A program made the position numbers and the translations under genes. This document shows positions 4,862-62,825 of a DNA stretch of 64,000 bases, piece after piece. The first letter of the stretch is position 1, and every line of letters begins with the position of its first letter. This stretch comes from an uncultured Pseudomonadales bacterium. Lineage in GTDB: Bacteria > Patescibacteriota > Microgenomatia > UBA1400 > Chazhemtobacteraceae. A model generated the notes under the pieces. It was not told the DNA's origin and did no database searches. It saw only the letters and a program-made list of their open reading frames with translations. The DNA is taken from the NCBI GenBank assembly GCA_964422035.1, contig CAYQZQ010000001.1:515025-579024 (forward strand). Direction: 5' to 3'.

Positions 4862-5669
4862 AGAAGCTATTAAGCTTCGCTTCAAAATCAGCAAAGCCAT
4901 TTTGGCTTTTAATACCAAGCAAGCTCTGGCTTATGCATACAACAACTGGGGCGGAATGGCTTCCACGGTTACTTATATGATCACCTACTTGGCATTTTTA
5001 TCGATTATTTATGCCCGAGTGAAGAGCATCGCCGGTTACAGTTATGCCGATATGTTGATGTTCACCCTGGTGGGACAGATAAGTTTTTATACCAATTGGT
5101 TTTGGAGTTTGAACGGGATTCAGCAGATGGTAAGAGATGTTAACTCGGGACGGTTAGATTTGATTTTGAGCAAACCGCTGCCGGCTTTATGGTTTGTAAC
5201 CTTTCAGAAAGCCAATCTACCCAGTATTCTGTTTCAAAGTGTGCCGGCAATGATTCCCTTGTTAGTTTTGATAGCTAAACACGCCAGTTACCTTCCCAGC
5301 TTGAGAGCACTGTTTCTGGCCACTGTTTGTTTTATCTTGGGGGTTATTTTAATCCACTGTTTTACTTTCATCTTGGGACTGACGGTATTTTGGACCGGAC
5401 AGAATAGGGCAATGATTAATTTAGGTTATCAGTTGAGTTATTTTGGCGATACTATACCCTTTGAAGCTTATCCAAAGTCTATTGTTTGGCTGGGTCTGAC
5501 GATTGTACCCTTTTTGGCTCATATTGCTTTAACCAGCTCGTATCTGCTGGGCAAGACGGAATCTTTGAACTATCTGTTGATCGTTTTAGTAGCAGTTATT
5601 ATCTTTTTGGCTGCTAAAATTAGGCTGTGGCGGGTGGCTTTACGTCGCTACGCTTCAGCTTCATCTTAA
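4842..5669 (+). CDS. ABC-2 type transporter permease (second subunit)
   Basis: 275 aa polytopic membrane protein immediately upstream of the ATPase. Confidence 0.5.
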   Translation: MNRWEFKEAIKLRFKISKAILAFNTKQALAYAYNNWGGMASTVTYMITYLAFLSIIYARVKSIAGYSYADMLMFTLVGQISFYTNWFWSLNGIQQMVRDVNSGRLDLILSKPLPALWFVTFQKANLPSILFQSVPAMIPLLVLIAKHASYLPSLRALFLATVCFILGVILIHCFTFILGLTVFWTGQNRAMINLGYQLSYFGDTIPFEAYPKSIVWLGLTIVPFLAHIALTSSYLLGKTESLNYLLIVLVAVIIFLAAKIRLWRVALRRYASASS

Positions 5670-5683
5670 TAAATAAAAAATCT

Positions 5684-7923: not shown

Positions 7924-8710
7924 GGATTAGAGTTCTGCCTAAAGTTTCTATTTGGGAGATAGCTTTGTTGTAGTAAGCATTTTCGGTCTTGCCTTGAGCA
8001 TTTTTTTTCTTTTGTACTAGTTCTTTTCGTTTTTGATTAATCAGCCAAAGGACTGGATTATTGTCTTTCTCTTTTTTAGCTTGTTGAGAGAAGTCATTGG
8101 CGAGTTCTCTGCTGATCTTGTATTTACCTTGATCGATCTGGTTTTGGACGTATTCTAGAAAATACCTACCGTATTTATCGCCTTTTTTATCTTTTAGTTT
8201 GATAATTTCTTGACCCACTAAGGTGTAGATGAGGTCTTCAACTTTTTGAGGGTCTTGGAGATCTTCTTTGTTAAGCCGAGTAAGAAGAACATCAATGGTA
8301 TCAAGATCAAAGGAGTCGGCATCTTGCTTTATATCAATACTCTGCCCCTCTTTTTGGGCTTTATCTAAAACATCTTTGAATCTTTCTGAGGCTTTAGGAG
8401 CTGGTTGATCTATTTTTGGTTTTTCAGAAGCAGGTTGGTCAGGTTGTCCTTCTACTCTATTTTTGATGGGTTGGGATTGTTGGACAGGTTTTTCTGGTTT
8501 TGGTTTGGGAGGAGTTGGTGAAGGAGAAAACTCTGGAGGTGAGGCAGGTTGAGACAATGAGGAAAGCTCTTGAGGGCCTTTGGACTGAGATTGAAGTTCT
8601 TGTTGATTTTCCGAAGAAGAAGATTGAGAGGGAGTTTCAGATGTTTTTTGGTTTTTAATTCTCTGTACGGATTGCTTTAACTTGTCTTGGTCTAGATCTT
8701 TTAGTTCCAT
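7910..8710 (-). CDS. Hypothetical protein with a low-complexity P/Q/S/E-rich N-terminal half
   Basis: ORF only. No recognisable domain; compositionally biased. Confidence 0.3.
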   Translation of the reverse strand: MELKDLDQDKLKQSVQRIKNQKTSETPSQSSSSENQQELQSQSKGPQELSSLSQPASPPEFSPSPTPPKPKPEKPVQQSQPIKNRVEGQPDQPASEKPKIDQPAPKASERFKDVLDKAQKEGQSIDIKQDADSFDLDTIDVLLTRLNKEDLQDPQKVEDLIYTLVGQEIIKLKDKKGDKYGRYFLEYVQNQIDQGKYKISRELANDFSQQAKKEKDNNPVLWLINQKRKELVQKKKNAQGKTENAYYNKAISQIETLGRTLILDEK

Positions 8711-9411: not shown

Positions 9412-10581
9412 TTAGCTGCCTATTAAGTATAACTCTTCCTCAGCGCGGGTGATGCCGGTATATAACCAGCGGCGCCACTGTTGATCGTTCATCTGCTTGA
9501 AGCGCTCTTCAAACAGTATGACTTTTTGAGCTTGACTACCTTGAGCTTTGTGAACTGTTAGAGCATAACCAAAATCAAACAAATCCACATCATCTGGAAT
9601 CTTTTTGCCCTCTTTGGTGCGTGACATAGTGCTTTTGGCACCAAACTGATCCTTTAGAACCTTGCCTTGAAAGACTTGATCATCGATGTCCATCTCGATC
9701 TGGACTTTGTAAAAGATATCTTCAAAAGGTTTTATGTTTATCAAAGTGCCCAACATGCCGTTGTAGATGTTTTTTTGGTGATTGTTGCGCAGACAGATAA
9801 CCCTATCCCCTTCCATGGGCTCAATTTGTGGATCAAAGAAACGCTTTTGGCGGATAAAGTCATTTATTTTCACACGGGTATGATTGTATCCGGATAGAAC
9901 AAGAGTGTCGTCATCATACTGGGAGAGCAGGTCTTCTATTCTCTGCTGGGAATCAAATGAGGTCTGATCGATCTTTTCCACAGCTGAGCCGTATTGACCG
10001 GGTTCTATAAAGCCTTTTTTGCGAGCTTTTATTGAGAGCTTGATAATAGGATTATCTTGAGCTTGGCGATGAATTTTTTCCAGTTTTATGTTTGGATCTT
10101 CCATGAGATTAAAGTCACCATGAATGGGAGGCAGCTGACCATGGTCTCCGATGGCCAGGATAGGCAGATCAAAGGAGATAAGATCTCTGAAGATATCAAG
10201 ATTGACCATTGAGGCCTCATCAACGATGATAAGTTGAGCATCAAGCGAAGACTTTTTCTTCCAGCCAGTTACAACTCCACCTGAGCTGACTATGGGAGCG
10301 TATATATATGAATGAATAGTGCCAACAAAGTCCTGATCAAAACGAGCATCGTGTTTGCGTAGAGTAGCATCCAGAACACGGCTAGCTTTACCTGTATATG
10401 AAATTAAAGCGATTTTTAGTTTTTCATTTCTTTTATGCAACAGGCGACGCAACATGGCAGTTAAAGTAGTTTTGCCAGTACCGGCATAGCCACCTAAAGT
10501 TAGGTACTGACTTCTTTCTTTATCCTTAAGCCAAGCTAGGATAGATTTTAAAGCGGATTTTTGATCTTTTGAGAGCTTCAC
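9412..10581 (-). CDS. RecD/Dda-like SF1 DNA helicase (AAA_30 + UvrD_C_2 type), short form
   Basis: Walker A GGYAGTGKTT, Walker B LIIVDEASMV, C-terminal YALTVHKAQGSQAQKVIL motif typical of the RecD/TraA/Dda family. Confidence 0.6.
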   Translation of the reverse strand: MKLSKDQKSALKSILAWLKDKERSQYLTLGGYAGTGKTTLTAMLRRLLHKRNEKLKIALISYTGKASRVLDATLRKHDARFDQDFVGTIHSYIYAPIVSSGGVVTGWKKKSSLDAQLIIVDEASMVNLDIFRDLISFDLPILAIGDHGQLPPIHGDFNLMEDPNIKLEKIHRQAQDNPIIKLSIKARKKGFIEPGQYGSAVEKIDQTSFDSQQRIEDLLSQYDDDTLVLSGYNHTRVKINDFIRQKRFFDPQIEPMEGDRVICLRNNHQKNIYNGMLGTLINIKPFEDIFYKVQIEMDIDDQVFQGKVLKDQFGAKSTMSRTKEGKKIPDDVDLFDFGYALTVHKAQGSQAQKVILFEERFKQMNDQQWRRWLYTGITRAEEELYLIGS

Positions 10582-11420: not shown

Positions 11421-13148
11421 TTAATAATCCCAGACTTTGTTATATGATAATTTGGCTAGTTTTTTTTGTCTACCTAAAATGTCATGGTTTCCCCACTCAC
11501 CCCTATTATTATCTTTGATGTATTCAACTACTTTTACGGTTGATGGAATTTTAGTTTCTGACAAAATGTCGATCTTTTCATCTAAAGATTTGTTACCAGC
11601 TTTAGAGTTGATTTTTTTGTGTATTAGCACTAGATTACCTAGTTTATCTTTGTATTCTCCATGTATGTGTTTTTCAATGTCCCATTCTTCATTATAGGTT
11701 TGAGGTAGTATATGTTCCAGATTCACAACATCAAAATCGATCGTAAATTCCTCCCCGCCTTCTTGCTCATCAATTTTATTTAATAAGTATTTTAGCAAGC
11801 GTCTTTGTTTGGTTGAGTGCTTGTAGCTAATATCCATAAATTTTTCTTCAAAAGATGGATATTCAGGCTTCAAATCTTTCAATCTTTGGACCATCTTACC
11901 CAGAATGCTCTCTTTTTCACGCTTGCTAAGATTGTTGTCAATGGCTTTTTCTAACTCTATAGCAGTTTGTGAATATAATTTTTCTACCTTGTTTGCTTGC
12001 AGCTTCGAAATCGCAGAATATACGAAGGTAAATTTTTCAATTGTCTCAAAATAATGATCTATCTTGAACTCTAATTCTTCCGCATTGCGCAAGAGAGCGA
12101 GAAATATGACGTAGCATTGCTTTACTCTCATAGCATTAATGCCTAATAAGCTTCTGAAGATTTTTTTGGTTTTCTCAATTTCTTTTATTTCCCAATCGGC
12201 AGGGTTATCGGACAAGATTCTGTGATACCATCTAGATGATTTTAAAAGCTCATCTAGAAAGGCTTTTTTATCAGTTATGTTGTTTTTGATGTCTCGAAAT
12301 AAACCTTTCTTGGTTGTGTGGTTGTATTTTGAAATCCAATGATATCGAATGAAGCGAGCAATACTAGCATCTACACCTCTAACATTATCAATTATTTCCT
12401 GCCATTTTTCTTTAGCAATATCTTTTTTCCCATCTTCGGGTATAACTTCTTGAAATATTAGATTTTTCAATAAATCTGCAATGCCTAGGTCTACTCCTCT
12501 AGCATTCACTGTTTCAAAGACAATATATGCTTTGTCGTTGCTGTCGATACGTATCTCAATCACTTCCAAAGCACTTACTTTTTGATATAAGTCCTCAAGA
12601 ACTTCTTCCTTATCTTCTTGTGATTTTTTGTTAGCCATTTTGTGCTTTATCTTCTCTTTAAGGAGTTCATAAGCATCTTCTACTCTTTTTTCTTCCTCGG
12701 TATCTGCTTCCACCCACCCTCCTTCTTCTCCTGATTGGATATTTGTTTCAAAGAAATCTTTAAGTGAGTCACCGCACAAAACTCTGAAGTCTTTATCTCT
12801 GCCGGTAACGGAGACATCTGCAATCGCCTTCCTTTGGATTCCATCTGAAAGTTTAGTTAAATCATTTTCTCTAGCAATATCACGTAGGGTTGCAAAAAAT
12901 AACGTTATTGTAAGAATCCTCTGTTGACCATCAATTATATCCGAGTATCCTGTTTTTTTCTTCTCTTCTTCATTAAAAACAAACGTGCCAATAAATGGTA
13001 AAGATCGTTTGCCTGCTATTATGTCGTTCCAAAATTCATCTATATTATTTTCTTCCCAGGAATATTCACGTTGATTCCTAGGTATACGATACCTTTTACT
13101 TTCACCTAAAAGGATATCTTCAATTTTTTTCTCTTTTGCTACAAACAT
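11421..13148 (-). CDS. GmrSD-family type IV (modification-dependent) restriction endonuclease, DUF262 + DUF1524
   Basis: N-terminal YRIPRNQREYSWE and IDGQQRILTI (DGQQR hallmark of DUF262/ParB-like NTPase). C-terminal LEHILPQ...GNLVLIHKKINSKAGNKSLDEK (DUF1524 HNH-like). The gene and both flanks are conspicuously AT-rich. Confidence 0.7.
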   Translation of the reverse strand: MFVAKEKKIEDILLGESKRYRIPRNQREYSWEENNIDEFWNDIIAGKRSLPFIGTFVFNEEEKKKTGYSDIIDGQQRILTITLFFATLRDIARENDLTKLSDGIQRKAIADVSVTGRDKDFRVLCGDSLKDFFETNIQSGEEGGWVEADTEEEKRVEDAYELLKEKIKHKMANKKSQEDKEEVLEDLYQKVSALEVIEIRIDSNDKAYIVFETVNARGVDLGIADLLKNLIFQEVIPEDGKKDIAKEKWQEIIDNVRGVDASIARFIRYHWISKYNHTTKKGLFRDIKNNITDKKAFLDELLKSSRWYHRILSDNPADWEIKEIEKTKKIFRSLLGINAMRVKQCYVIFLALLRNAEELEFKIDHYFETIEKFTFVYSAISKLQANKVEKLYSQTAIELEKAIDNNLSKREKESILGKMVQRLKDLKPEYPSFEEKFMDISYKHSTKQRRLLKYLLNKIDEQEGGEEFTIDFDVVNLEHILPQTYNEEWDIEKHIHGEYKDKLGNLVLIHKKINSKAGNKSLDEKIDILSETKIPSTVKVVEYIKDNNRGEWGNHDILGRQKKLAKLSYNKVWDY

Positions 13149-46443: not shown

Positions 46444-46567
46444 TAAAAAATAGAAATAACTAAAATTCAGGCAGGTGAATTAAACGCAAAAAATAACACT
46501 CCCCAAAAGGAGGCTTTTTACAATGTGGTCAAGTTTAACAATGCTATTGCAGTATGTCAAGAGCTTG

Positions 46568-47572
46568 TTATCTAAGATAAAATTGAACGTTCTCATTGTG
46601 CTCTTGGATAGTTTTAGCATAATGTATTTGACCATTTGTGTCATGTAAATAAAACCAGTAAGGCGTTTGAGTTGGATTGTAAGCTGCTTTTATGCTCGAA
46701 ATTGAAGGATTGGCTATTGGACTTGGCGGCAGTCCTGGCTGATTATATGTATTGTATGGTGAGTCGATATTAATATCTTCCCGAGTAATATTATTTGGCC
46801 ACCAATTACAAGTCAAAACCTTACACTCACGATTAGCAATAATATATTGTACCGAAGCGTCAACCTGAAGAGGCCAGTCGTTTTGAAGTCTTTTATAGAG
46901 TATTCCTCCAACAACTGAGCGTTCTTTGTCATTTGCAGCTTCACGCTCTATTAAAGATGCCAGTACTAGAGACTCTCGGTCGGAGAGAGTAGTATTATTA
47001 GACAGTTTTGAAGTACGATTCTGATAGTTTTCCAATAGTTGAGCAAGAATTTCTTCACTCGATGCATCGAGTGGAATAGCATATGTGTCCGGATATAGTC
47101 TACCTTCATACTCTGTGCTGATACTTAAAAATTCGTTAGGGTCGAAGTTGTATTCAGGATTATTTTCACTCAACTCATTAATGATTTCTTGCGTGTATTG
47201 TTCTCTTCTCCAACCTTCAAGTAAAGTTATCCACCTATCAGAAGTGCCCTTGGTCAGCCTTATAATGATTTCTTTAAGAGGAAGTTTTGGTGAAAGCCTA
47301 TATTGGCCTGCTTGAAGTGATCTGCTCAAGCCTGACAAGGCAACTTGAATTTTAAATGCGGGAACTGACCTTATTAATTTCTTCTCTTTTAACTTCTTCG
47401 CTATTTGATCTAAAGACTCCCCTTTCTGAATGCTTAAAGTTACCATTTGATTACCATTGCGAACAACAGGTCTTGATTGAATTTTAAACCAAATTATTCC
47501 TGAAAGGAAAGATAGAAAAGCAATAATGATAAGCGATGAGATGCCCTTGGTTATATAGCTATAATTCGACAT
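46568..47572 (-). CDS. mltG: Endolytic murein transglycosylase MltG (YceG-like), start reassigned to MSNYSYI
   Basis: N-terminal TM, then the YceG family pattern (LIRS...GQYRLSPKLPLKEII...GWRREQ..). Confidence 0.7.
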   Translation of the reverse strand: MSNYSYITKGISSLIIIAFLSFLSGIIWFKIQSRPVVRNGNQMVTLSIQKGESLDQIAKKLKEKKLIRSVPAFKIQVALSGLSRSLQAGQYRLSPKLPLKEIIIRLTKGTSDRWITLLEGWRREQYTQEIINELSENNPEYNFDPNEFLSISTEYEGRLYPDTYAIPLDASSEEILAQLLENYQNRTSKLSNNTTLSDRESLVLASLIEREAANDKERSVVGGILYKRLQNDWPLQVDASVQYIIANRECKVLTCNWWPNNITREDINIDSPYNTYNQPGLPPSPIANPSISSIKAAYNPTQTPYWFYLHDTNGQIHYAKTIQEHNENVQFYLR

Positions 47573-47573
47573 T

Positions 47574-47777
47574 TCAAACTTCTTCAAAAAGCGCCCTTCT
47601 GTAAGTTTTTTCTTTTGTGTTGTACATAAATATCCTTCCACATTTACATGTTACTTTTTCGTGATTTTTTACTTTAGATTTTTTCTTTTGGCCTTGTTTA
47701 AGTGGAGTACCACAACCAACACACTTGCCTTTTGATAATAGCCACGCCTGTATGGGAGCTATAATATTTTTAAACAT
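47574..47777 (-). CDS. Small zinc-ribbon protein (CxxC...CxC)
   Basis: 67 aa, CVGCGTPL ... CKCGRIF. Sits in the ruvX-mltG spacer. Confidence 0.35.
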   Translation of the reverse strand: MFKNIIAPIQAWLLSKGKCVGCGTPLKQGQKKKSKVKNHEKVTCKCGRIFMYNTKEKTYRRALFEEV

Positions 47778-47781
47778 AATT

Positions 47782-48174
47782 TTATTGTATCAGATCGTCA
47801 ATGAAGTTTTGTAAAATAACTGCTGCTGAAATTTGATGGATTTTTTTTGAATTTTTCTTTGAATTTATAATTTCATCTTTTGCTCTAGCACTGGTTTTGT
47901 CTTCATTTACATATATAACTGGCGTTTCCATGTCTTTTTGAATTGCTTTACCTAGTTGTTTTGAATACTTATGAACATCTCCCCTTTTAGGGAGACCTAT
48001 TATAATTTTTTCAGGATTGTATTTATTGATTATTTGTATAATTTTTTCAAGTTGTTGACTAAAACCTAATCCTTGTATGGTAGTTAATCCTTCTGAAAAT
48101 TTTCCATAATGTGATACTGCTATCCCCGCATGCTTGAGCCCAGGATCGATACACAGAAATTTTATTTTTGTCAT
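47782..48174 (-). CDS. ruvX: Holliday-junction resolvase-like RNase YqgF/RuvX
   Basis: FLCIDPGLKHAGIAVS... RNase H-like fold signature; conserved position next to mltG. Confidence 0.75.
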   Translation of the reverse strand: MTKIKFLCIDPGLKHAGIAVSHYGKFSEGLTTIQGLGFSQQLEKIIQIINKYNPEKIIIGLPKRGDVHKYSKQLGKAIQKDMETPVIYVNEDKTSARAKDEIINSKKNSKKIHQISAAVILQNFIDDLIQ

Positions 48175-48899
48175 TTTGAAACTAATTTTGCTGTTACAAC
48201 TAAGCGCCTGGTTTTAAGTCCTGGAGGCACACAAGTGATTAGTTTAAGATTTTTAGAGTCATATTTTTGTCTTAGTACCCATAGATCATCGGGGAAAACT
48301 TCTTGTTTCTCAATGACTTGGTATGTATAAACAACATTGTCGTAGTTTAAAAATATCTCATCACCATTTTCCAATTTTGGCAAAAGAGAGAAAATTGCCA
48401 GATAGTTATTTGGGTCATAAAACTGTGGAAGTATTGAGTGACCAAAAATAACAGGACTGCCCAGTTCTCCTGGTAATGCAGTATCAGGGTAATGAACTAA
48501 TCCCTCATTAAGATTCTCTCCTCCAATGATTACTCTTGCTTGATCGATTTTTAATTTGGGAATTGCAAGTTGGTATTTACTAGAGTCTAAATTGCTTGAG
48601 CTTTTACTTCTGTCTTGAGGGAACCAATTTTGAGGCCTAGTATAGTCATATTCTCCAACAACCTTGGGCTTTGGAGATTGTTGAGAAGTGCCTACTACAG
48701 GAGAGATCAGTCCAGATTGTTTGTTGTTTAACTGAAAAGAATTAATTTGTAACTCGTAAGACACGATCGGCCATATAACAAAAGCTATTAATAACAGGCC
48801 GACGACTGAAATCAGTGTAGGCAAAACCTGTATGTGAAAAGGTTTTAAAGAATTTTTAAAAGTATCAAGGCTGGCCTTGTGGTATACATAGAGTGGCAT
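48171..48899 (-). CDS. Sortase family transpeptidase
   Basis: N-terminal TM; GELGSPVIFGHS (His), LITCVPP (TLxTC Cys), RRLVVTAKLV (Arg). Confidence 0.7.
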   Translation of the reverse strand: MPLYVYHKASLDTFKNSLKPFHIQVLPTLISVVGLLLIAFVIWPIVSYELQINSFQLNNKQSGLISPVVGTSQQSPKPKVVGEYDYTRPQNWFPQDRSKSSSNLDSSKYQLAIPKLKIDQARVIIGGENLNEGLVHYPDTALPGELGSPVIFGHSILPQFYDPNNYLAIFSLLPKLENGDEIFLNYDNVVYTYQVIEKQEVFPDDLWVLRQKYDSKNLKLITCVPPGLKTRRLVVTAKLVSK

Positions 48900-48900
48900 C

Positions 48901-51036
48901 TTAAATTGGTTCTATAGTTATGTTAATCTTTTCAGCTCGTGGGGGCATGTATCTTCTTAGTATCGGCAAATTTGGAGATATGATTAGCTGACTTCGCTTA
49001 TAGCCGGCAATGTTTTCTAAAAGCCTCCTGGTTTCTCTTGCTGACATTTTTTTCATTTGTTCTTGATAGTCTGCAATAGGTACATCAGGTGTTAGTTGGG
49101 CTTCAATTTTGACATCCGCAGTGAGGGAGTTGTCTTGAGAGTTTAAAGCTATAAACTCGGTTGTTGTGTCTTCCAATCTTAATTTCCAACCAGGAGGAAT
49201 GTCATCTCTGATTTTATTTTTCAAAAGGTTAACCATGTCTTCGTCTTTATATGTAAGCAGGGTAAATTCAGCCTTTAGATTCAGACTCAAATTATCAGCA
49301 GGGTCTCCAGCCTCAACACTGTATTGAGCATCTGTAATTTCTGGACTTGATATAGGAACTGTGTTTTGCCCATCCTTTTGAGTCTTATTTAGTTTCTCCT
49401 TAGATTGACTGATAATCTCCTCAGTGACATTTTTTAACAATCTATCAAGATCCTCTTGGTTGGGAGATTTAACGGTTTCAGAATATCCCCCGGAAAAATC
49501 ATCATTTGCTTTAGCTAAAACTGATGTTTTAGGATATGTGTCAACACTTAACTCTGTTCCTGAACTAATATTTCCCTCTTCACCAACTTGTTCTGCTGTA
49601 ACTGATGTCGTGCTTTGACCAGGAACCAGAGTTGTAATTTCGCTTTCATCAGTTGAAGCAGTTTGTGAAGCAATTTCAACTTCCTCGTCTAGAGTGTACT
49701 CTATGTTATTGCTAGTAGCTAGGATGGCTCCTTTTTCAATAACCTTAGAAGAGTTTGTCTTGTTGTACAAAACAACTTGACCTTTTGCGGGATTTCCAAT
49801 TAAAGTTTCTCCTGTAGTAGAGATTTCTCCTTGGCCCTCTAGAGAAATTGATTGTTGGCCTGCCTTTAACGTGGAATTGCCACTCCCTTGATCTGAAATA
49901 TCTATAGTTAATCTTTTAGTAACTTTCTCTGGCTCTACAAAAACTTTTATATTTGCTGTTAAAAACTGCATGTAAATAATTAAGGTTCCTATTCCCATTA
50001 ACAATAAAATGATTAAGGGGGCAAGTATTTTCCAAGTTTTTGAAATATTTGTTTTAGGAAAAGAAAAGTTTACTGAAGGTCTTTTAAAATTTTTGATCTT
50101 ATTAACTAAAATAGATGAGTAAGTTTTTATGCCTTTTCTATCTTGGGTGTCTTTTATTTTTTTTACTTCATCATCAGGTTCACTTTCTTGGTCTTGGTGT
50201 GAAGACTTTGTAATATCGTCCGAGATAAAACTGTTCTGTTTGTGTTTTGTGTTAGATTTGTTTTTATCTTTTTTAATTTTTTTGTCGCTGATCTTTATCC
50301 CCATAGATTTTGCTGCTTCGATACCTCCCGCTAACGCAACTGATTGAATGGTTAATTGAGAATCTGGTTGCTCTACTTTAGGAAGGTGTATAAAGGGTAG
50401 TTTTTCTTGCCAGGGGTATGATGAAAGTTGCTGCTCAGCGTCTGACTCAGATCCATTAATTATTAATATGCGTGACGGTAGTTGTTTGACGTCAATTCTT
50501 GCCAACGCCTCTTCAACATCCTGACCCAGATCTTCACTTCTTCCCACCTCTTGCCTTCCTATGACACGGCCAAGTTTAATCACTACAACATTTACTTTTG
50601 TATCATTTAGTTCTAAGAGGATAAGGCTTGGAGGAATACCTTCACTGATTTTAAGTTGTTGAATAATGGCTTCTGTTATAACAACAAATCCTACAGCCTC
50701 AATTTCAAGCTTCTTTGTAATATCTTTAATTTTGGGCTGAATAGATAAGGCAATTTTTTTTCCTTTTACCCAAGCCTCTGGTAGTCCGAAAATTGCTTTA
50801 TCGGGTTCAGAACTTAAACCTTTCAATGCAGAACCTAAAGACTTGTCAACAGCTAGCAACAATGATTCGTCATCTCTCCAACTTTCAACTGAACCATAGT
50901 TGATAATCTTAGGTTGGTTGTCGACAATCTGCCAGACTGCAGTTTTTACCCTAGATTCTTGAATTTCAATTGCAAGAAACTTTTCGGGTGACATCTCGTC
51001 TTTGTTGTTCTTTTTTAGAATATTGTTTATTTCCAT
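48901..51036 (-). CDS. 711-aa bitopic membrane protein: cytoplasmic N-domain with weak FtsA/PilM actin-like resemblance, single TM near residue 330, large extracellular S/T/E-rich domain
   Basis: LAIEIQESRVKTAVWQIVDNQPKII and LILLELNDTKVNVVVIKLGRVIGRQEV resemble the phosphate-1/2 segments of actin-like ATPases (degenerate). TM WKILAPLIILLLMGIGTLIIYMQFL. No LPXTG motif. Confidence 0.35.
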   Translation of the reverse strand: MEINNILKKNNKDEMSPEKFLAIEIQESRVKTAVWQIVDNQPKIINYGSVESWRDDESLLLAVDKSLGSALKGLSSEPDKAIFGLPEAWVKGKKIALSIQPKIKDITKKLEIEAVGFVVITEAIIQQLKISEGIPPSLILLELNDTKVNVVVIKLGRVIGRQEVGRSEDLGQDVEEALARIDVKQLPSRILIINGSESDAEQQLSSYPWQEKLPFIHLPKVEQPDSQLTIQSVALAGGIEAAKSMGIKISDKKIKKDKNKSNTKHKQNSFISDDITKSSHQDQESEPDDEVKKIKDTQDRKGIKTYSSILVNKIKNFKRPSVNFSFPKTNISKTWKILAPLIILLLMGIGTLIIYMQFLTANIKVFVEPEKVTKRLTIDISDQGSGNSTLKAGQQSISLEGQGEISTTGETLIGNPAKGQVVLYNKTNSSKVIEKGAILATSNNIEYTLDEEVEIASQTASTDESEITTLVPGQSTTSVTAEQVGEEGNISSGTELSVDTYPKTSVLAKANDDFSGGYSETVKSPNQEDLDRLLKNVTEEIISQSKEKLNKTQKDGQNTVPISSPEITDAQYSVEAGDPADNLSLNLKAEFTLLTYKDEDMVNLLKNKIRDDIPPGWKLRLEDTTTEFIALNSQDNSLTADVKIEAQLTPDVPIADYQEQMKKMSARETRRLLENIAGYKRSQLIISPNLPILRRYMPPRAEKINITIEPI

Positions 51037-51065: not shown

Positions 51066-52919
51066 TTAAACCAATTTTGCATAAATCCTTTGTATACCCT
51101 TACCCACTGATGTCTGTTTATATATTTTAATATGTCCGATATCTCCTGTACTAGAGACATGAGGTCCGTTGCATACCTCAAGGCTAAAGTCTCTAATGCT
51201 ATATACTTTGACTTCTTGCTGATTGTATCTTTCTTTAAAAAAGGCAAGTGCATTTTTTTCTAGTGCTTCCTCTAAGGTCATTTGAGAAAATTCAACCTGT
51301 AAGTCTTCATCAATTTTTTTATTTACGATTTTCTCAACTTCCCTTAATTCTTCATCACTAATTTTTTGGGAATGCGTGAAATCAAATCGGAGTCTTTCTT
51401 TTGTAATATTTGAACCTGTTTGTTTGACTTGCTCTCCCAAGACCTTCCTTAGTGCTTTGTGAACAAGGTGTGTAGCAGTGTGATATTTCGTGGTTGTCTC
51501 TGAATGATCAGCTAACCCCCCCTTAAACATTCCCTTACTTGCAGAGCGAGATTTTTCTGCATGATTTTGAATTAATTTTTCAAACTTTTTTTTGTCAAGA
51601 TTTACCCCCTTGCGAGCCAATAAGTTGCTGGTGATTTCGAAGGGTAAGCCGTGGGATTGATAGAGATCAAATGCTTTTTGTTCGTCAATTTTGGAGAATT
51701 TTAGTTTTTCAAGTTCTCTTAAACCTCTTTCTAAAGTTTTTGAAAATTTATTTAGCTCCGAATCAATAGTGTCCTTAATTATTGTTTTCTTTGTTTCTAA
51801 ATAATCATAGTCCTGCTTGTATATATCTACTACTGTTTCTACCAAAGAAGCCAATTGCTTGGAAGCTGGGTTATCTGTTAGGTGATACATTGACATCGAG
51901 GCGTTTCTTAACAGGCGTCGAAGAATATAACCTTGTTGCTTGTTGGAAGGGCGGACTCCTTGCCCAATCATAAACGTTGAGGCTTTAATGTGGTCAGCTA
52001 TAGCTTGAAAATCAGCTTTATTATTGGACGTGTATTCTTCATTAGTTAATATTTTAAGTTTGTTTATAATCGGCTGAAATAAATCAGTTCTAAACATATC
52101 GGGAGTATCTTGTTTGGCAGCTAAGAGTCGCTCAAGACCTCCTCCAAAATCGACGTTGGGGTGTTTTAATTTTTCAAAAGTGCCATCTTTGTTTTTTTTA
52201 TATTGCATAAAAACTGAATTGCCGATTTCAAAAAATCTTCCGCAGTCACAGTTGGGATGACAATGTGGGCCATATTTTGAGTCATGCTCGACTTGATCAA
52301 ATTCAAAAAAGACTTCGGAGTCTGGTCCTCCAGGCTCTTGAGGGGGCATGTTTTCTGGTACTCCCTGCCTACTCCACCAGTTTTTTTGAGCATCATAAAA
52401 GAATATGCGTGCGTTTTTTTTGAGACCACTGCTTTTTGCTTCTTCTCCATCTTGTGTGACAGCTTTTATGCCAACATCAGAGAATAAATTTTTCCAAATA
52501 CTTACTGACTCTTCGTCTTTAGAGATATTATTTTGTGAAGAACCAGAAAAAACAGAGACATAGAGTCTCTCTGGTGAGAGCTTAATCTCTTGAATAAGAA
52601 AATCCCAAAACCACGATAGTTGTTGTGCCTTAAAGTAATCTCCGAGCGACCAATTTCCTAGCATTTCAAAGAATGTTGTATGTCTATCATCTCCTACTTC
52701 ATCAATGTCTTCAGCTCTAAAAGAAGGCTGCGAGTTGACTAAGCGGACTCCTTGGGGGTGCTTTTGTCCTAGAAGATAGGGAACAAGGGGTTGCATTCCA
52801 GAACCGGTGAACAGGGTGGTGGGGTCTTCCTGAGGAACAAGAGAAGCAGGGGAGATAATGACGTGGTCTTTGGATTTAAAATAATTTAGATATTTTTGCC
52901 TTAATTCTTGACCAGTCAT
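51066..52919 (-). CDS. alaS: Alanine--tRNA ligase, short form lacking the C-Ala domain
   Basis: Catalytic-core match (DPTTLFTGSGMQP..., HTTFFEMLGNWSLGDYF) and editing-domain HTATHLVH...CNGPHV. 617 aa versus the usual about 870. Confidence 0.85.
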   Translation of the reverse strand: MTGQELRQKYLNYFKSKDHVIISPASLVPQEDPTTLFTGSGMQPLVPYLLGQKHPQGVRLVNSQPSFRAEDIDEVGDDRHTTFFEMLGNWSLGDYFKAQQLSWFWDFLIQEIKLSPERLYVSVFSGSSQNNISKDEESVSIWKNLFSDVGIKAVTQDGEEAKSSGLKKNARIFFYDAQKNWWSRQGVPENMPPQEPGGPDSEVFFEFDQVEHDSKYGPHCHPNCDCGRFFEIGNSVFMQYKKNKDGTFEKLKHPNVDFGGGLERLLAAKQDTPDMFRTDLFQPIINKLKILTNEEYTSNNKADFQAIADHIKASTFMIGQGVRPSNKQQGYILRRLLRNASMSMYHLTDNPASKQLASLVETVVDIYKQDYDYLETKKTIIKDTIDSELNKFSKTLERGLRELEKLKFSKIDEQKAFDLYQSHGLPFEITSNLLARKGVNLDKKKFEKLIQNHAEKSRSASKGMFKGGLADHSETTTKYHTATHLVHKALRKVLGEQVKQTGSNITKERLRFDFTHSQKISDEELREVEKIVNKKIDEDLQVEFSQMTLEEALEKNALAFFKERYNQQEVKVYSIRDFSLEVCNGPHVSSTGDIGHIKIYKQTSVGKGIQRIYAKLV

Positions 52920-53584: not shown

Positions 53585-54217
53585 TTATGAAGACACGATA
53601 GTTATAGGGATTGTTTTTTTATTGGTCCTAGAAAATCGATTAGTAGATTTGATTTCAAGCTCGTACTCACCAGGAGAGAGGTTGATCTGGGTAAAGAATA
53701 TGCCGGAAGAGTCAGGTTTAATATGAGTATTTTGATTAATCATTATTGATGAATCAGGAGAGGTTTTACCTTCGATAATTACAGGTGAAACAATAACAGA
53801 ATTAGCTTCAGGTTGAGTAATGCTTAGGGGTGGAGGAACAACAAGTGCTCTATATTGAAAAGCTAAATATCCAAAGAAGGCAATTATTCCTGTAGCTACC
53901 AACTTCCAGCCCGTTGATGAAATTATTGAAGATTTTTGCTTAATGTTAGAGGTAGATTCTTTTTCTAATGTTGTATTTTTAGTAGAAGAGTAATCTCTAC
54001 GAAAAACAGCGATCAACTCCTCAGGGGGAACATCGACTTGAATAGCATAGTTTCTTATAAACCCTTTTACAAAAGTTGGAGGGGGCAGCTTTTGAAATTT
54101 ATCGTTCTCTAGCGCCTTGATGTATCTGGCTTCAATCCTAGTTGCCTGAGCGATATCTTGAATAGAAAGTTTTTTCTCTTTGCGTGCAGAAGTTAGGATT
54201 TCCCCAAGAGATTTCAT
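53585..54217 (-). CDS. rodZ: RodZ-like cytoskeleton protein (XRE-type HTH + TM + C-terminal beta domain)
   Basis: LGEILTSARKEKKLSIQDIAQATRIEARYIKALEND HTH, TM at about residue 105. Confidence 0.6.
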   Translation of the reverse strand: MKSLGEILTSARKEKKLSIQDIAQATRIEARYIKALENDKFQKLPPPTFVKGFIRNYAIQVDVPPEELIAVFRRDYSSTKNTTLEKESTSNIKQKSSIISSTGWKLVATGIIAFFGYLAFQYRALVVPPPLSITQPEANSVIVSPVIIEGKTSPDSSIMINQNTHIKPDSSGIFFTQINLSPGEYELEIKSTNRFSRTNKKTIPITIVSS

Positions 54218-54220
54218 TTT

Positions 54221-56344
54221 TTACTCTTCTTCTACTTCGTTTAAAATTTCGTCTGCTGAATCAATTAAGACATCGCGCGGTTTGCTTCCGTCTGGAGGAG
54301 TAACAATGCCAGCTCTTTGTAGTTGATCTAAGATGCGAGCAGCTCTTGCATAACCAATTGAAAGGCGTCTCTGGAAAAGAGAGGCTGAGGCTTTATCGTG
54401 TTGCACACTAAGCTTAACGGCATCATCAAATAATTCATCTACATCTTCAAGTGGTTCTCCTTCTATGCTAGTAGGGGCACTTGAAGAGTGGGTTTCAGTA
54501 ACTTCCTCCTCGTACTCAGGTTTTTCTGAATGCTTTTTAAGGTAATCAATTACTTCTTTGGTTTCACTATCGGAAACAAATGTGCCCTGAATTCTGCGTG
54601 GTTTGGCTTGGTCAGGAGGAATATACAACATGTCACCTTTGCCTAACAATTTTTCAGCTCCAGGAGTATCAATGATAACTCTAGAGTCAACCATAGAAGT
54701 CACATTAAAGGCGATACGACAAGGGATATTTGCTTTGATTAAGCCAGTGATTACATCTGTAGATGGCCTTTGAGTAGATAATATTAGATGTATACCTACA
54801 GCTCGTGCCATTTGAGCAAGTCTAGTAATTGTATCTTCAACTTCGGACGTGTTGTAAAGCATGATATCAGCCAGTTCGTCAATAAAGATAACGATGTAAG
54901 GCATTGCTTGAAAGCCAGATAGTTGATTGTATGCAGCAATATTTCTTACCTTAACTTCTGAGAACAATTTATATCTTCTTTCCATTTCCTGAAGGGCCCA
55001 TTTCAATGAAGCTACCACTTTTTCTGGGTCGATTATCACGGGAGTAAGAAGATGGGGAATTCCGTTGTACTGAGTTAATTCTACTCGTTTGGGATCAACT
55101 AATATGAGTTTTACTTCTGAGGGTGAGGTTCTGTAAAGGATTGAGGAAATAAATGAGTTAATACAAACGGACTTACCCGAGCCCGTAGCACCGGCAATTA
55201 AGACGTGGGGCATTTTGGTTATATCAACTACAACTGGCTCACCGGAAACATTTAACCCCAAACCAACAACTAGTTTTGAATCGGATTCCTTCATGGGTTG
55301 AGAAACAAGCATTCGCTTTAAAGATACATTTTCAGCAGAACGATTGGGGACTTCTATGCCAACAAGATTTCTGCCAGGAATGGGAGCTTCTATTCTTATC
55401 TGACCAGTGGGAGCTGATAGAGCCAGGGCAAGGTCGTTTTGGAGATTAGTTACTTTTGATAGCTTGGTTCCAATTGCAAGTTCGATGGCATATTGTGTTA
55501 CGGCTGGACCAAGATTTACTTCAACCACCCGGGCTTCAATACCGAACGATTCAAGCGTTTTTTCAATAATATCGGCATTCTTTTTTATATCACCGCGATC
55601 GGCTTGACCTGTTTTTACATCCTCTAATAAGTCCAGTGAAGGTGCTTGCCACTGTTGATTGCTATCAGCCGAAGGTTGATTCCTGACAACTTGATTTTCC
55701 AGGTCTGTTGATTCATCTTCTTTATTGATATCTTTCTGTTTTTTTGTGTCAGCGGATTTATCTAATGATTCAGATTTTGAACTTGGAGTCATGCCACCAA
55801 CCTTCAATTGTCTTTTGGAAAGGATTTTTGATGTTTTGGGTTTAGGTACATTTTGACCAGCTTTTTGAATGAATTTTAAAGTATCTTTGATAAAAACAAC
55901 CATATCTTCCAGTGATGTCTCAAAGAATATAATCAGGCCTATTAACGTGCCTGAAAAAAAGAACAAGTATGTTCCAGGAGAGGTTATAAGAGATTTAAAG
56001 GATATGAAGACTTGAGAGCCAATTTCACCAGACTGAAATAAAGTTATTAAAGATAATAAGATAATTAGTGCTCCAAGAAAAATATGAGGCTTCGCTGCTT
56101 CTAACTTTACTTTGGTGATAACCAATCCTCCCAATATAAAAATAAAGGGTAGTCCTATCAATCCCCAACCAAAAAGATGGGAGCCTAGTTGGTATATTTT
56201 GGAAAGTATTGGTCCTTGTTGCGAAAAAGAGATTGAGACTAGCCCACCTAGAGTAATAAGACTGACGGCAGCTATCGACCTTAGAGAGTCTTTCTTTAAT
56301 TTAAGTTTAAAAGGTTTAGTGCGTCTTCCGCGCTTTCGAGCCAT
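54221..56344 (-). CDS. ftsK: DNA translocase FtsK/SpoIIIE
   Basis: N-terminal TMs; motor domain HVLIAGATGSGKSVCIN, IVIFIDELAD; C-terminal gamma-like domain. Confidence 0.9.
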   Translation of the reverse strand: MARKRGRRTKPFKLKLKKDSLRSIAAVSLITLGGLVSISFSQQGPILSKIYQLGSHLFGWGLIGLPFIFILGGLVITKVKLEAAKPHIFLGALIILLSLITLFQSGEIGSQVFISFKSLITSPGTYLFFFSGTLIGLIIFFETSLEDMVVFIKDTLKFIQKAGQNVPKPKTSKILSKRQLKVGGMTPSSKSESLDKSADTKKQKDINKEDESTDLENQVVRNQPSADSNQQWQAPSLDLLEDVKTGQADRGDIKKNADIIEKTLESFGIEARVVEVNLGPAVTQYAIELAIGTKLSKVTNLQNDLALALSAPTGQIRIEAPIPGRNLVGIEVPNRSAENVSLKRMLVSQPMKESDSKLVVGLGLNVSGEPVVVDITKMPHVLIAGATGSGKSVCINSFISSILYRTSPSEVKLILVDPKRVELTQYNGIPHLLTPVIIDPEKVVASLKWALQEMERRYKLFSEVKVRNIAAYNQLSGFQAMPYIVIFIDELADIMLYNTSEVEDTITRLAQMARAVGIHLILSTQRPSTDVITGLIKANIPCRIAFNVTSMVDSRVIIDTPGAEKLLGKGDMLYIPPDQAKPRRIQGTFVSDSETKEVIDYLKKHSEKPEYEEEVTETHSSSAPTSIEGEPLEDVDELFDDAVKLSVQHDKASASLFQRRLSIGYARAARILDQLQRAGIVTPPDGSKPRDVLIDSADEILNEVEEE

Positions 56345-61934: not shown

Positions 61935-62825
61935 CTAATTGCGCTGTGAATCACTGTGATAAATTTTAGGTTTTTGCCAATCTGAAGGAACGTCTTCGTC
62001 TGAAAAATCAGATTTTTGTGTGGACAAATCGGGGTGTGGCTTAGGTTCTTGAAAAGAAGGCTGTTCTTCAAAAAAAGGAGGCTTATTAGAAGAGGTTAGC
62101 TGGTTAACTTGAGCATTATTTTCAAGTAAGTAAGCAGCGATTTTGAATGTTTGAGGAGTTATGTGAGGGGATTTAAATTGATCAGTATTATCGAGCATGC
62201 GTTGGTATAAGATGGTGGCAGTTGATTGAGAAATTTTCAATTTAAATTTTTTAAGGAGATAAGAGATTGCTTCGGAAATTCCGGTGCTACGAGCATTAAG
62301 GTCAAGTGTAGGAAATTCAAGTTCTTCATTGTCTTGATGGATATTGATAAGAGTAGATTTGTCGATGAATTCTTTTTCTTGGGAGTATAGTTTACCTAGT
62401 TCTGATAAAGATTTTATGCCAATAGTGATAACTAAGTCTGCCTGTGCCCCAGAAAACGAGTATTCTACCTGTTTGGGGTCAAGTGGTTGCCCTTCTTTGG
62501 CAGGCTTGATCATTAAGTTAAATACTTGTTTATCTTTATTAATATCATATGAAACATGGCCAACAGATTCTGCTTTGTATGGAAAAGAGATTATTAAATT
62601 TTGGTTGCCAACTTGTTGTTGAATCTCTTCCGCTCCCGGAAGTTGAGAGTCAATCTTTGAAGAACAACCAATTGTTGATTTTTTATCGGCCTTTTTTAAG
62701 CTTGAATGGAGGGCTAAGCCTGCTGCAATTAAGTCTGCACTTGGCTTTGGTGGTAGAAGCACTAAAACAGTTGAGGAAGATTTGAGCAGTTCTTGAAAAC
62801 TATCGACTTTATTTTGTCCAAACAT
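61935..62825 (-). CDS. DHH/DHHA1 phosphoesterase-like (NrnA-like) protein with degenerate catalytic motifs
   Basis: VLVLLPPKPSADLIAAGLALHSSLKK aligns to NrnA motif I-II but DxD is replaced by SAD. NIHQDN sits where DHH is expected. A conserved DHH-family gene is known next to infB-rbfA in other bacteria. Confidence 0.35.
   Translation of the reverse strand: MFGQNKVDSFQELLKSSSTVLVLLPPKPSADLIAAGLALHSSLKKADKKSTIGCSSKIDSQLPGAEEIQQQVGNQNLIISFPYKAESVGHVSYDINKDKQVFNLMIKPAKEGQPLDPKQVEYSFSGAQADLVITIGIKSLSELGKLYSQEKEFIDKSTLINIHQDNEELEFPTLDLNARSTGISEAISYLLKKFKLKISQSTATILYQRMLDNTDQFKSPHITPQTFKIAAYLLENNAQVNQLTSSNKPPFFEEQPSFQEPKPHPDLSTQKSDFSDEDVPSDWQKPKIYHSDSQRN

Follow-up and report, generated by a model that had tools for sequence, protein, structure and literature searches.

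GspL of type II secretion is a bitopic protein in which a cytoplasmic actin-like domain that binds no nucleotide is followed by one transmembrane (TM) helix and an extracytoplasmic domain, and it represents the fused counterpart of two separate proteins of type IV pili, the ATP-binding PilM and PilN. PilM binds the N-terminal peptide of its bitopic partner PilN. FtsA contacts downstream divisome proteins and FtsZ through its 1C and 2B subdomains. Baseplate wedge proteins such as P2 J, Mu gp47, T4 gp6 and diffocin TRI-2 are soluble, reside in multi-protein baseplates and are encoded in tail gene clusters. The gene order alaS-ruvX-mltG is known from Firmicutes.

The locus described here lies in a 64-kb window (the whole stretch of DNA that was analysed) and encodes a 711-aa protein with the architecture of GspL/EpsL, in which a nucleotide-free actin-like domain is joined through one TM helix to an extracytoplasmic domain. 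However, it is not a member of the GspL or PilN families: Pfam and NCBIfam searches with the 711-aa protein returned zero GspL matches, and its ectodomain is a 350-aa wedge homolog rather than a ferredoxin-like domain. Moreover, unlike GspL and PilM-PilN loci, those encoding the 711-aa protein have no secretion or pilus ATPase, platform, pilin or gspE/F/M neighbours. The analogy with a PilM-PilN fusion drawn in the original prediction is apt at the level of architecture.

Results

On the minus strand of the window, tightly packed genes follow in the order alaS (51066-52919; NF002436, 646 bits), the 711-aa gene (48901-51036), a gene for a 242-aa sortase (48171-48899; PF04203, E 4e-23, and TIGR01076), ruvX (yqgF, 47782-48174; PF03652 and TIGR00250), an ORF for a 67-aa zinc-ribbon protein with a CxxC...CxC pattern (47574-47777) and mltG (YceG, 46568-47641; PF02618, E 1.5e-72, and TIGR00247), the last gene of the apparent operon. 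Only 29 nt lie between alaS and the 711-aa gene and 1 nt between the latter and the sortase gene, whose stop overlaps the start of ruvX by 4 nt, a spacing that is operon-like. The ORFs and their order match exactly what had been predicted, namely an alaS-ruvX-mltG neighbourhood with the 711-aa gene and the sortase inserted before ruvX; the 67-aa gene between ruvX and mltG has to be added to that description. The surrounding co-directional housekeeping array exceeds 45 kb. A terminator-like hairpin 3' of mltG (46499-46512, minus strand) and a promoter-like site for rpoB (46532-46560) are putative, both coming from a consensus scan alone.

The family of the 711-aa protein is large, comprising 4,673 clusters of 50% identity at E<=1e-30, with 94 full-length homologs and 69 Microgenomates loci at the species level that carry the gene. 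The sortase gene is directly 3' in 56 of the 63 loci from species-level genomes with enough downstream sequence, and this adjacency spans several Microgenomates candidate phyla, down to 25-30% identity of the partner protein. Given this recurrence, the arrangement is far beyond chance. In the remaining 7 of 63 fused-form loci the sortase is missing, and in three of them the 711-aa-type gene abuts ruvX or mltG. Upstream, alaS occurs on the same strand within 600 nt of the fused gene in 45/57 loci; downstream, mltG is found in 48/51, and tblastn matches to the 67-aa CxxC gene are present in most related loci. The original prediction had named two outcomes that would speak against it, an N-domain without an actin-fold signal and a pair absent or unlinked in all relatives; the N-domain does have such a signal (see below), and since the pairing is kept in 56/63 loci, neither outcome applies.

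The 711-aa protein consists of four parts, a cytoplasmic actin-like domain, a disordered linker, one TM helix and a folded ectodomain (AF2 model, mean pLDDT 83). As predicted, the protein is bitopic: its sole hydrophobic segment (residues 331-363) contains the TM helix (residues 336-358; 49963-50031, minus strand, as are all features below), modelled as a helix at 333-357. The K/R-rich sequence N-terminal of this helix and an N-domain that has no signal peptide point to an N-in/C-out orientation. The cytoplasmic part had been taken for a domain of ~330 residues, but only residues 18-245 (50302-50985) are folded, forming a minimal ASKHA (actin/FtsA/PilM-like) domain, whereas residues 246-335 are a K/S/D-rich linker of ~90 residues (50032-50301) with pLDDT <50, as seen for residues 250-325 of the AF2 model. 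Within this linker F270 (50227-50229) is invariant in alignment A2, with conservation of 90% or more in A1, and its context reads 'LGF' in the family consensus versus 'NSF' in the window protein.

The N-domain has the two RNase-H-like beta-beta-beta-alpha-beta-alpha-beta-alpha subdomains that define the ASKHA superfamily, with PilM as its top structural match, but it lacks the nucleotide-binding motifs of this superfamily (phosphate-1 DxG, phosphate-2 DxGGG and adenosine GG). Across 42 members of the fused family, the column of the phosphate-1 Asp holds E/Q/L/K, and the columns equivalent to the phosphate-2 and adenosine motifs hold E/Q/G/R and N/D-G/S, with no glycine loops, so that the predicted degeneracy of this actin-like domain is borne out. 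The FtsA models TIGR01174 and PF14450 gave zero matches at E<=0.1 with the fused protein and the 42 members, and the PilM models PF11104/TIGR01175 likewise gave zero HMM matches with the protein and its family. The domain has neither a 1C (SHS2) subdomain nor a C-terminal amphipathic targeting helix; linker and true TM helix come next.

The ectodomain (residues 359-711, 353 residues; 48904-49962) has homologs among phage baseplate wedge proteins of the J/gp47/gp6/TRI-2 type, a relationship missed in the original prediction. Its core beta-barrel (residues 415-518; 49483-49794) matches Pfam Baseplate_J (PF04865) at E 4.3e-7 and 29.9 bits, above the cut-off of 21.1, as do 30/42 family members, and the ectodomain also matches the PHROG 6 baseplate wedge subunit (E 1.3e-6) and, in the PDB, TRI-2 CD1371 (E 0.013). 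Its structural matches are phage and diffocin wedge proteins, and it aligns full-length with solved wedge proteins, with a similar order of subdomains over ~350 residues; the PF04865 barrel core is homologous to that of P2 J, Mu gp47, T4 gp6, diffocin TRI-2 and T6SS TssF. The barrel carries conserved GDKAxGxVTxYN and IGxxxN motifs (G485, N489) and ends C-terminally in an SGG motif (G516, G517); invariant residues of the ectodomain region are G409, G414, G419, G485, N489, G517 and D529, while an invariant Lys that could serve as a sortase nucleophile was sought in the ectodomain alignment and not found. An S/T/E-rich extracellular domain of 380 residues had been described; the T/E/S richness holds, if modestly, but residues 359-711 are confidently folded (pLDDT mostly >85) into a domain above the Baseplate_J threshold rather than low-complexity sequence.

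These Baseplate_J and PHROG 6 matches, together with the structural similarity to phage and diffocin wedge proteins, would also be expected of a prophage, tailocin or contractile injection system remnant, in which a domesticated baseplate gene still acts in a phage-like particle. We regard this reading as hardly credible. Genes for gp25/W-like, gp7/I-like, spike, tube and sheath proteins were sought in the window and related loci and none were found, the domain lies on the outer side of a TM helix in a cellular protein, the position in a housekeeping operon is fixed across at least 69 genomes and the GC content of the 711-aa gene region is that of its flanks. Unlike soluble wedge proteins in their baseplates, the domain here lies outside the membrane with no other baseplate genes at hand.

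In other lineages of the ultrasmall CPR bacteria (Saccharimonadia and unclassified Patescibacteria) two genes fill the slot alaS...ruvX-mltG, one for a cytoplasmic FtsA paralog and the other for a baseplate-J-like protein that is bitopic. In two such loci (L078 and L081) an FtsA-family gene of 415-444 aa sits directly upstream of a gene of 575-585 aa for a TM and J-like protein, with 2-6 nt between the coding sequences and the pair placed between alaS and ruvX; in a third (L083) both genes are present in a rearranged order. Comparison by hhalign links the fused family to the split FtsA-like paralogs (prob 98.4, E 4.4e-15), with which its N-domain shares a W-x3-LPF-x3-P-x-V motif, and to the split J-like protein (prob 99.6, E 9e-25). 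Given these profile links to both genes, the Microgenomates protein is a fusion: both halves are homologous and occupy the same alaS-ruvX-mltG position. It is thus well supported that the 711-aa protein is the single-chain version of a two-gene module known from several CPR lineages. Fused and split forms are analogous to GspL on the one hand and PilM plus PilN on the other.

The split FtsA-like paralogs keep the 1C/SHS2 subdomain and the ATP motifs DxGT, DxGGGTTD and CGGG, whereas the fused family has none of the three motifs and, by hhalign, no counterpart of the 1C segment. That the FtsA-like part, fused at the N-terminus, has lost 1C/SHS2, much of 2B and the ATP-binding motifs is well supported, as is the addition of a sortase gene directly 3' of the fusion in Microgenomates. 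The split J-like protein has a SpoIIAA/STAS-like N-domain of ~100 aa where the fused protein has its ASKHA domain. In this sample Microgenomates-type loci are the only ones with the fusion, and a sortase directly 3' of the J-like gene is absent from every split-form locus. The suggestion of a module specific to this lineage does not hold for the core, which also occurs in other CPR.

Southlakia epibionticum ML1 of the Saccharibacteria, whose gene order matches that of L078 (alaS ... ruvX-mltG-LysM-obg), offers a genetic view of the split form. SEML1_0655, a 'baseplate J/gp47 family protein', belongs to the Patescibacteria-enriched core and is class II essential, its Tn-seq insertions falling from 25 to 7 to 2 (Wang et al. 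2023, PMC10633639, Table S1). The FtsA/PilM-like gene SEML1_0656, also in this core set, shows a growth defect, with reads dropping from 2427 to 221 (PMC10633639, Tables S1/S2). Both are apparent orthologs, assigned by gene order and annotation only; they occupy the same slot and encode the same modules (FtsA-family ASKHA; TM and gp6/J-like ectodomain), but as two separate genes with no sortase adjoining. Polar effects on the essential ruvX could account in part for what is seen with the J-like gene, yet the FtsA-like gene upstream of it tolerates insertions, an observation that runs counter to polarity.

One reading of the locus is that of a divisome or elongasome part, in which an FtsA-derived membrane anchor would couple the cytoplasmic machinery of division or elongation to peptidoglycan enzymes outside the cell, for example MltG, LysM/CHAP hydrolases or PBPs. 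By sequence, the nearest family to the split paralog is FtsA (TIGR01174, 116 bits; PDB FtsA 7q6f, E 3.5e-22; KEGG K03590 in Southlakia, PMC10633639). Neighbours of the 711-aa gene include ftsK, a RodZ-like HTH_25 protein and mltG; LysM/CHAP genes lie nearby in L078 and L083, and mraW, PBP and Mur ligase genes in L079 (a short form and the only locus placed after PBP and Mur ligase genes). However, the paralog remains below the FtsA equivalog cut-off of 176 bits, and Southlakia has a separate, canonical and essential FtsA-FtsZ pair (SEML1_0174/0175), while its MltG is non-essential, in contrast to the J-like gene (PMC10633639). Compared with FtsA, the fused domain is missing 1C and most of 2B as well as the ATP motifs and the C-terminal amphipathic helix, has a real TM helix instead, and is encoded with no ftsZ neighbour, canonical FtsA being separate in Saccharibacteria. 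Linkage to ftsZ or the dcw cluster was looked for, and no ftsZ occurs in the window or in the related loci that were read for gene content. The divisome anchor of the original prediction finds no backing in the context, and we consider a divisome role unlikely.

The same prediction had also raised a pilus assembly module. On a reading of this kind, the locus would encode a type IV (or other) pilus alignment subcomplex with a PilM-PilN/PilO-like platform and a sortase that would polymerise or anchor pilins. It is true that PilM is the best structural match of the N-domain, that PGAP gives the Saccharibacterial partner SEML1_0656 the name 'pilus assembly protein PilM' (PMC10633639), that the architecture is akin to GspL and PilM-PilN and that type IV pili (T4P) are near-universal and essential in CPR (PMC6744442, PMC10633639). 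Yet Pfam PilM_2 does not match the fused domain, and genes for pilin, PilB/T/C/N/O and prepilin peptidase never adjoin the gene in at least 80 loci; pilin, PilB/C/N/O and sorting-signal proteins, including a sorting-signal pilin, were found neither in the window nor in ~1 Mb of related loci. Genuine PilM proteins are instead encoded in T4P loci, both in Southlakia, as a distinct PilM-PilN pair (SEML1_0104/0105; PMC10633639), and in a Microgenomates genome (PMC7143001). A pilus role thus seems quite improbable. The 711-aa locus has no relation to the Pam pilus operon known from CPR.

The sortase is predicted to be membrane-anchored and catalytically intact, with a TM segment (residues 27-47; 48759-48821), a catalytic domain (residues 111-240; 48180-48569) and a triad of His154 (48438-48440), Cys223 (48231-48233) and Arg232 (48204-48206) that is 100% conserved among 60 orthologs. 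It scores above the cut-offs of PF04203 (81.8 versus 26.6 bits) and TIGR01076 (56.8 versus 39.35), and shares with class A/E and C sortases the fold, a TLxTC-like 'LITCVP' motif, the His-Cys-Arg triad and the N-terminal anchor; among solved structures, 4d70 and sortases of classes C/E come nearest to it. However, all class models remain below their cut-offs of 160-166 bits (E 58.6, C 56.4, D 45.7, F 25.5), and it therefore belongs to no defined class; unlike those classes, it has a conserved NWFP motif in its linker (48618-48629). As had been predicted, an LPXTG-like motif is absent from the whole 711-aa protein, and no sorting-signal substrate (motif, TM helix, basic tail) was found in the 64-kb window or ~1 Mb of loci.

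Méheust et al. 2019 (PMC6744442) report a near-ubiquitous sortase family in Microgenomates. The present sortase could be the general housekeeping sortase of Microgenomates and share the operon without functional meaning, the 711-aa protein acting independently. The split module occurs without an adjacent sortase and 7/63 fused loci lack one, three of them abutting ruvX or mltG, and the sortase may thus be functionally independent; moreover, no substrate lies in the neighbourhood and the operon also holds the functionally unrelated alaS and ruvX. Such independence is conceivable but somewhat unlikely, as adjacency is retained in 56/63 species-level genomes of several candidate phyla despite the low partner identity, only 1 nt separates the two genes in the window, and both the fusion and a sortase directly 3' of the J-like gene were seen only in Microgenomates-type loci in this sample.

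Discussion

The most likely role of the 711-aa protein is that of a trans-envelope scaffold. The cytoplasmic pseudo-ATPase domain would mediate docking or oligomerisation independently of nucleotide and be held by a flexible linker with a short conserved motif around F270, while the wedge-like ectodomain would assemble in the wall zone, probably as an oligomer, and there organise how the cell envelope or cell surface is put together. In Microgenomates it would do so in concert with the co-translated sortase, and perhaps with MltG as well, the sortase anchoring substrates encoded elsewhere. The module would provide a housekeeping function needed for growth rather than constitute an accessory island. 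We give the explanation as a whole, a fused CPR module that acts as a trans-envelope scaffold, roughly even chances. The synteny with ruvX and mltG may reflect ancestral gene order rather than shared function.

A bolder and rather unlikely possibility is that an unrecognised CPR trans-envelope machine exists, in which an FtsA-derived cytoplasmic module operates with an extracellular, membrane-anchored ring of wedge homologs, a cellular 'baseplate' in the wall zone that would be essential for the epibiotic lifestyle. If so, surface fibres or adhesins could be mounted on this 'baseplate' as on a platform or collar, or it could serve passage through the wall, and in Microgenomates a dedicated sortase would process its cargo.

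A large share of bacterial diversity belongs to the CPR/Patescibacteria, whose envelope construction is poorly understood. What emerges from the locus is a module of two parts, an FtsA paralog plus a membrane protein with a phage-baseplate-wedge fold outside the cell, which the papers found here do not discuss in their main text. Several CPR lineages keep it at a single housekeeping position, it is part of the Patescibacteria-enriched core set and it matters for growth in the one genetically tractable relative. The fusion in Microgenomates is evidence from nature for a physical cooperation of the two parts, and the tightly linked sortase offers a biochemical handle on the module. With both, thousands of clusters of an anonymous 'hypothetical protein' become a defined, testable candidate for a CPR-specific envelope machine. 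The locus also illustrates how a structural fold known from phages has been recruited for cellular housekeeping.

A bitopic protein and a sortase within a housekeeping gene array

The 711-aa open reading frame at 48901-51036 (-) and the gene for a 242-aa sortase at 48171-48899 (-) lie between alaS (51066-52919 (-)) and ruvX (47782-48174 (-)), and the coordinates and gene calls of the original prediction are correct. The gene order begins with ftsK (54221-56344 (-)), which is always followed by a gene for a RodZ-like membrane protein with an HTH_25 domain, a transmembrane (TM) helix and, C-terminally, an Ig-like domain (53585-54217 (-)), then by genes for a DUF948-like and a YtxH membrane protein, both small and encoded on the minus strand, and by alaS, an order that is kept in related loci. 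Downstream of ruvX come an ORF of 67 aa (47574-47777 (-)), mltG (46568-47641 (-)), rpoB/rpoC and the superoperon of ribosomal-protein genes (together at 17000-46443 (-)). Since these last genes are co-directional with the 711-aa and sortase genes, the module resides inside an array of housekeeping genes that exceeds 45 kb. Genes are spaced as in an operon: 29 nt separate alaS from the 711-aa gene and 1 nt separates the latter from the sortase gene, which overlaps ruvX by 4 nt. By consensus scan only, mltG is followed by the sole terminator-like hairpin with the right orientation and an intergenic position, and this hairpin by a promoter-like site ahead of rpoB. The GC content of the locus (0.33-0.38) is the same as that of its flanks, and a horizontal insertion of the module was rejected on genomic context and base composition.

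The 67-aa protein carries cysteines in a CxxC...CxC arrangement, is conserved in most Microgenomates loci by tblastn and is probably a zinc ribbon; its sole family match is a marginal one to prepilin peptidase, in the zinc-binding N-domain of that enzyme. By position, its gene takes the place of the small genes that separate ruvX from mltG in Firmicutes. Elsewhere, the window encodes a GmrSD-type (DUF262/DUF1524) restriction endonuclease targeting modified DNA (11421-13148 (-)), a RecD/PIF1-like helicase (9412-10581) and two proteins of 266 aa (7910-8710 (-)) and 296 aa (61935-62825 (-)) with no Pfam match at E<=0.001.

An actin-like fold joined to a baseplate-wedge homolog

An AlphaFold2 model built from 42 homologs (mean pLDDT 83), together with a topology read from hydrophobicity and charge, divides the 711-aa protein into four parts. 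Residues 18-245 form two beta-beta-beta-alpha-beta-alpha-beta-alpha units that constitute an ASKHA (actin-like) fold in minimal form, residues 246-335 a linker rich in K, S and D with pLDDT below 50, residues 336-358 the sole hydrophobic helix of the protein, and residues 359-711 a beta-rich ectodomain whose fold is modelled with confidence. The cytoplasmic actin-like domain that had been proposed thus stands as to its fold, but only residues 18-245 are folded and the remainder to residue 335 is linker. The N-domain very probably does not bind nucleotides, because family members vary, and are poor in glycine, where the phosphate-1 Asp, the DxGGG loop of phosphate-2 and the adenosine GG would be expected, and because no ASKHA model of Pfam or NCBIfam matches it in any of the 42. 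The linker is otherwise disordered and weakly conserved around an invariant residue, F270 (50227-50229 (-)), embedded in "LGF" in the family consensus and in "NSF" in the window protein; this site looks like a putative short linear binding motif.

The extracellular part, previously described as S/T/E-rich and left without an identity, is a homolog of phage baseplate wedge proteins. Pfam Baseplate_J (PF04865) scores 29.9 bits, above its gathering score of 21.1, and matches 30 of the 42 members, PHROG 6 ("baseplate wedge subunit") matches the ectodomain with an E value of 1.3e-6, and a family profile sequence search of the PDB finds diffocin TRI-2 (E 0.013). Foldseek aligns some 345-363 columns of the model to whole wedge proteins of 346-404 aa, namely those of cyanophage A-1(L) (gp31), phi812, diffocin (TRI-2) and XM1 (gp16), and many "Baseplate J like" proteins are among the matches to the model in a viral structure library. 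As these long alignments come with a high rmsd, the subdomains differ in their spatial arrangement. No other baseplate, tail or injection-system genes were found near the 711-aa gene. A prophage remnant was rejected on genomic context and base composition, and we regard the chance that the gene is a relic of a phage as next to negligible.

A conserved neighbourhood and a gene fusion

An exhaustive profile search, counted in representative proteins, returned 12,816 family members at E<=1e-3, of which 4,673 reach E<=1e-30; each of the top 150 spans the full length (684-822 aa). Scanning a single genome for each species on the basis of 12 closer sequences yielded 69 loci, and those with a meaningful organism name are all of the Microgenomates type (Collier-, Beckwith-, Chisholm-, Shapiro-, Davies- and Amesbacteria), to which Gottesmanbacteria are added from a further locus. 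Many metagenome-assembled genomes with a Microgenomates-type locus (L007-L075) are titled "uncultured Pseudomonadales" or "Gammaproteobacteria bacterium", and one protein "Pseudomonadota bacterium", which look like placeholder or wrong taxonomic labels. The neighbourhood is conserved: among loci with enough sequence, tblastn places a sortase on the same strand within 2.5 kb downstream in 56 of 63, alaS on the same strand within 600 nt upstream in 45 of 57 and mltG downstream in 48 of 51. Of the seven loci lacking the sortase, four show a synteny break after the gene, two have the gene adjoining ruvX-mltG and in one mltG alone was detected. The genes that lie between the sortase and ruvX/mltG in five loci (L009, L013, L014, L031 and L060) look unrelated on inspection.

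The suggestion that the module may be specific to this lineage does not hold, since split forms occupy the same slot in other CPR lineages. A profile search of the protein database added only two remote relatives and, through P0229, led to short and split forms. The short form of about 403 aa (Kuenenbacteria-type) consists of a short tail, a TM helix and the ectodomain, while a form of about 560-600 aa in Saccharimonadales and other Patescibacteria has a small alpha/beta N-domain (~90-100 aa) that a linker and a TM helix connect to the ectodomain. In the Saccharimonadales locus L078 the order is alaS, a 272-aa protein, an FtsA-family protein (444 aa), the J-like protein (585 aa), ruvX, mltG, LysM/CHAP and obg, and in L081 (Patescibacteria group) it is alaS, FtsA-like (415 aa), J-like (575 aa) and ruvX. 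In the short-form lineages the J-like gene lies 3' of alaS, directly (L079) or two genes on (L080), before infA and ribosomal-protein genes. Both genes are present but rearranged in L083, where a single downstream gene (6824-8278 of that locus) encodes a 484-aa protein with RuvX (PF03652) and YceG/MltG (PF02618) domains, a hint that the ruvX-mltG linkage itself may be functional.

Profile-profile comparison matches the fused family to three FtsA-like paralogs over residues 11-226 (probability 98.4%, E 4.4e-15), which together with the ASKHA fold of the model bears out the predicted actin fold, and to the split J-like protein over residues 336-709 (probability 99.6%, E 9e-25). The N-domain also matches a single FtsA-like sequence (E 6e-9), and a W-x3-LPF-x3-P-x-V motif is common to the fused family and the paralogs. 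Given the matches to both halves and the genomic contexts, the Microgenomates protein is a gene fusion, and in this statement and in the identity of the protein we have high confidence. The two-part module is ancestral to CPR or, at the least, widespread among them. The split paralogs keep DxGT, DxGGGTTD and CGGG and have FtsA as the nearest solved structure (E 3.5e-22), with a score below the FtsA equivalog cut-off (116 vs 176 bits). Relative to them, the fused N-domain has the 1C/SHS2 subdomain cleanly deleted and much of 2B as well; the actin-like half appears to have turned pseudo-ATPase in the fusion.

Counterparts in Southlakia epibionticum

Gene order from SEML1_0657 to SEML1_0651 in S. 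epibionticum is identical to that of L078, with alaS (SEML1_0657), the FtsA-like SEML1_0656, the J-like SEML1_0655, RuvX (SEML1_0654), MltG (SEML1_0653, non-essential by Tn-seq), LysM (SEML1_0652) and ObgE (SEML1_0651) (Wang et al., 2023, Cell; PMC10633639, Tables S1 and S2). From this synteny and from alignments to L078-type proteins we infer that SEML1_0655/0656 are orthologous to the window protein. SEML1_0655, annotated "baseplate J/gp47 family protein", is class II essential (Tn-seq NE/ES/ES, insertions falling from 25 to 7 to 2), is assigned by ECOD a SpoIIAA-like N-domain, a beta-barrel and a gp6 C-terminal domain III, and is flagged, like SEML1_0656, as a core, Patescibacteria-enriched family (PMC10633639). 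SEML1_0656 itself shows a growth defect (reads 2427 to 221; PMC10633639). As the FtsA-like gene upstream tolerates insertions (PMC10633639), we consider strong polarity an unlikely cause of the SEML1_0655 phenotype. The two genes are not discussed in the main text of that study (PMC10633639), nor described in the other literature that we found.

The genome also encodes FtsA-FtsZ (SEML1_0174/0175, essential) and the type IV pilus proteins PilM-PilN (SEML1_0104/0105) as further, separate pairs (PMC10633639), so the module represents a third actin-fold system. It is possible that the module acts in the divisome or elongasome; however, the fused domain has lost 1C and 2B and a canonical FtsA exists separately, which makes this role unlikely. 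A role in pilus alignment appears more improbable still, as pilus genes are never adjacent and PilM-PilN exists separately. The module has no relation to the "Pam" pilus operon described for CPR bacteria (bioRxiv 2026.03.03.709456).

The sortase and its substrate

The sortase passes general sortase models and none of the class A-F models, its nearest solved relatives being 4d70 and class C/E enzymes. His154, Cys223 and Arg232 are kept in 60 of 60 orthologs, P67 is invariant, and an NWFP motif common to orthologs (residues 91-94, 48618-48629 (-); W92 and F93 at least 90% conserved) lies in the extracellular linker just before the catalytic domain, where it could serve as a putative lid-like or partner-binding element. 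One family of sortases occurs in nearly all Microgenomates (Méheust et al., 2019; PMC6744442). The 711-aa protein has no LPXTG-like motif, as originally noted, and the search for a substrate elsewhere, by scanning the window and all loci for C-terminal sorting signals, gave no credible candidate; the literature on sortases in CPR names no substrate either. In L082, where a short J-like protein of 455 aa sits elsewhere in the genome with a sortase 4 kb upstream (features at 572-1210 and 5001-6368 of that locus), the sortase directly follows an 883-aa PKD/TSP1/CLIPPER surface protein, a candidate type of sortase substrate for CPR. We judge it roughly an even call that the sortase and the 711-aa protein truly work as partners; that the sortase is a mere passenger beside the gene seems doubtful.

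A possible trans-envelope scaffold

In baseplates, wedge proteins serve as building blocks that oligomerise, and for this reason the wedge-like ectodomain may oligomerise in the wall zone. Since they are fused in one gene, the cytoplasmic and extracellular halves would interact physically, and the fused protein could act as a trans-envelope scaffold that relates to the split module as GspL does to PilM plus PilN. In Microgenomates, it would cooperate with the co-translated sortase to assemble surface proteins or the wall. We put this mechanism forward tentatively, at slightly less than even chances. The architecture follows the GspL/PilM-PilN type among bitopic actin-fold scaffolds, with a baseplate-wedge ectodomain that is unprecedented.

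The window sequence is already in public databases, and Saccharibacterial counterparts already carry the automatic names "baseplate J/gp47 family protein" and "PilM". Literature on baseplate J with Patescibacteria, Saccharibacteria or sortase does not describe the family and, to our knowledge, neither the module itself nor the nucleotide-free fused form nor the tight coupling to an unclassified sortase has been described in the searchable literature. The fused module is real and conserved, it is probably essential and, together with its sortase, it is well worth experimental follow-up.
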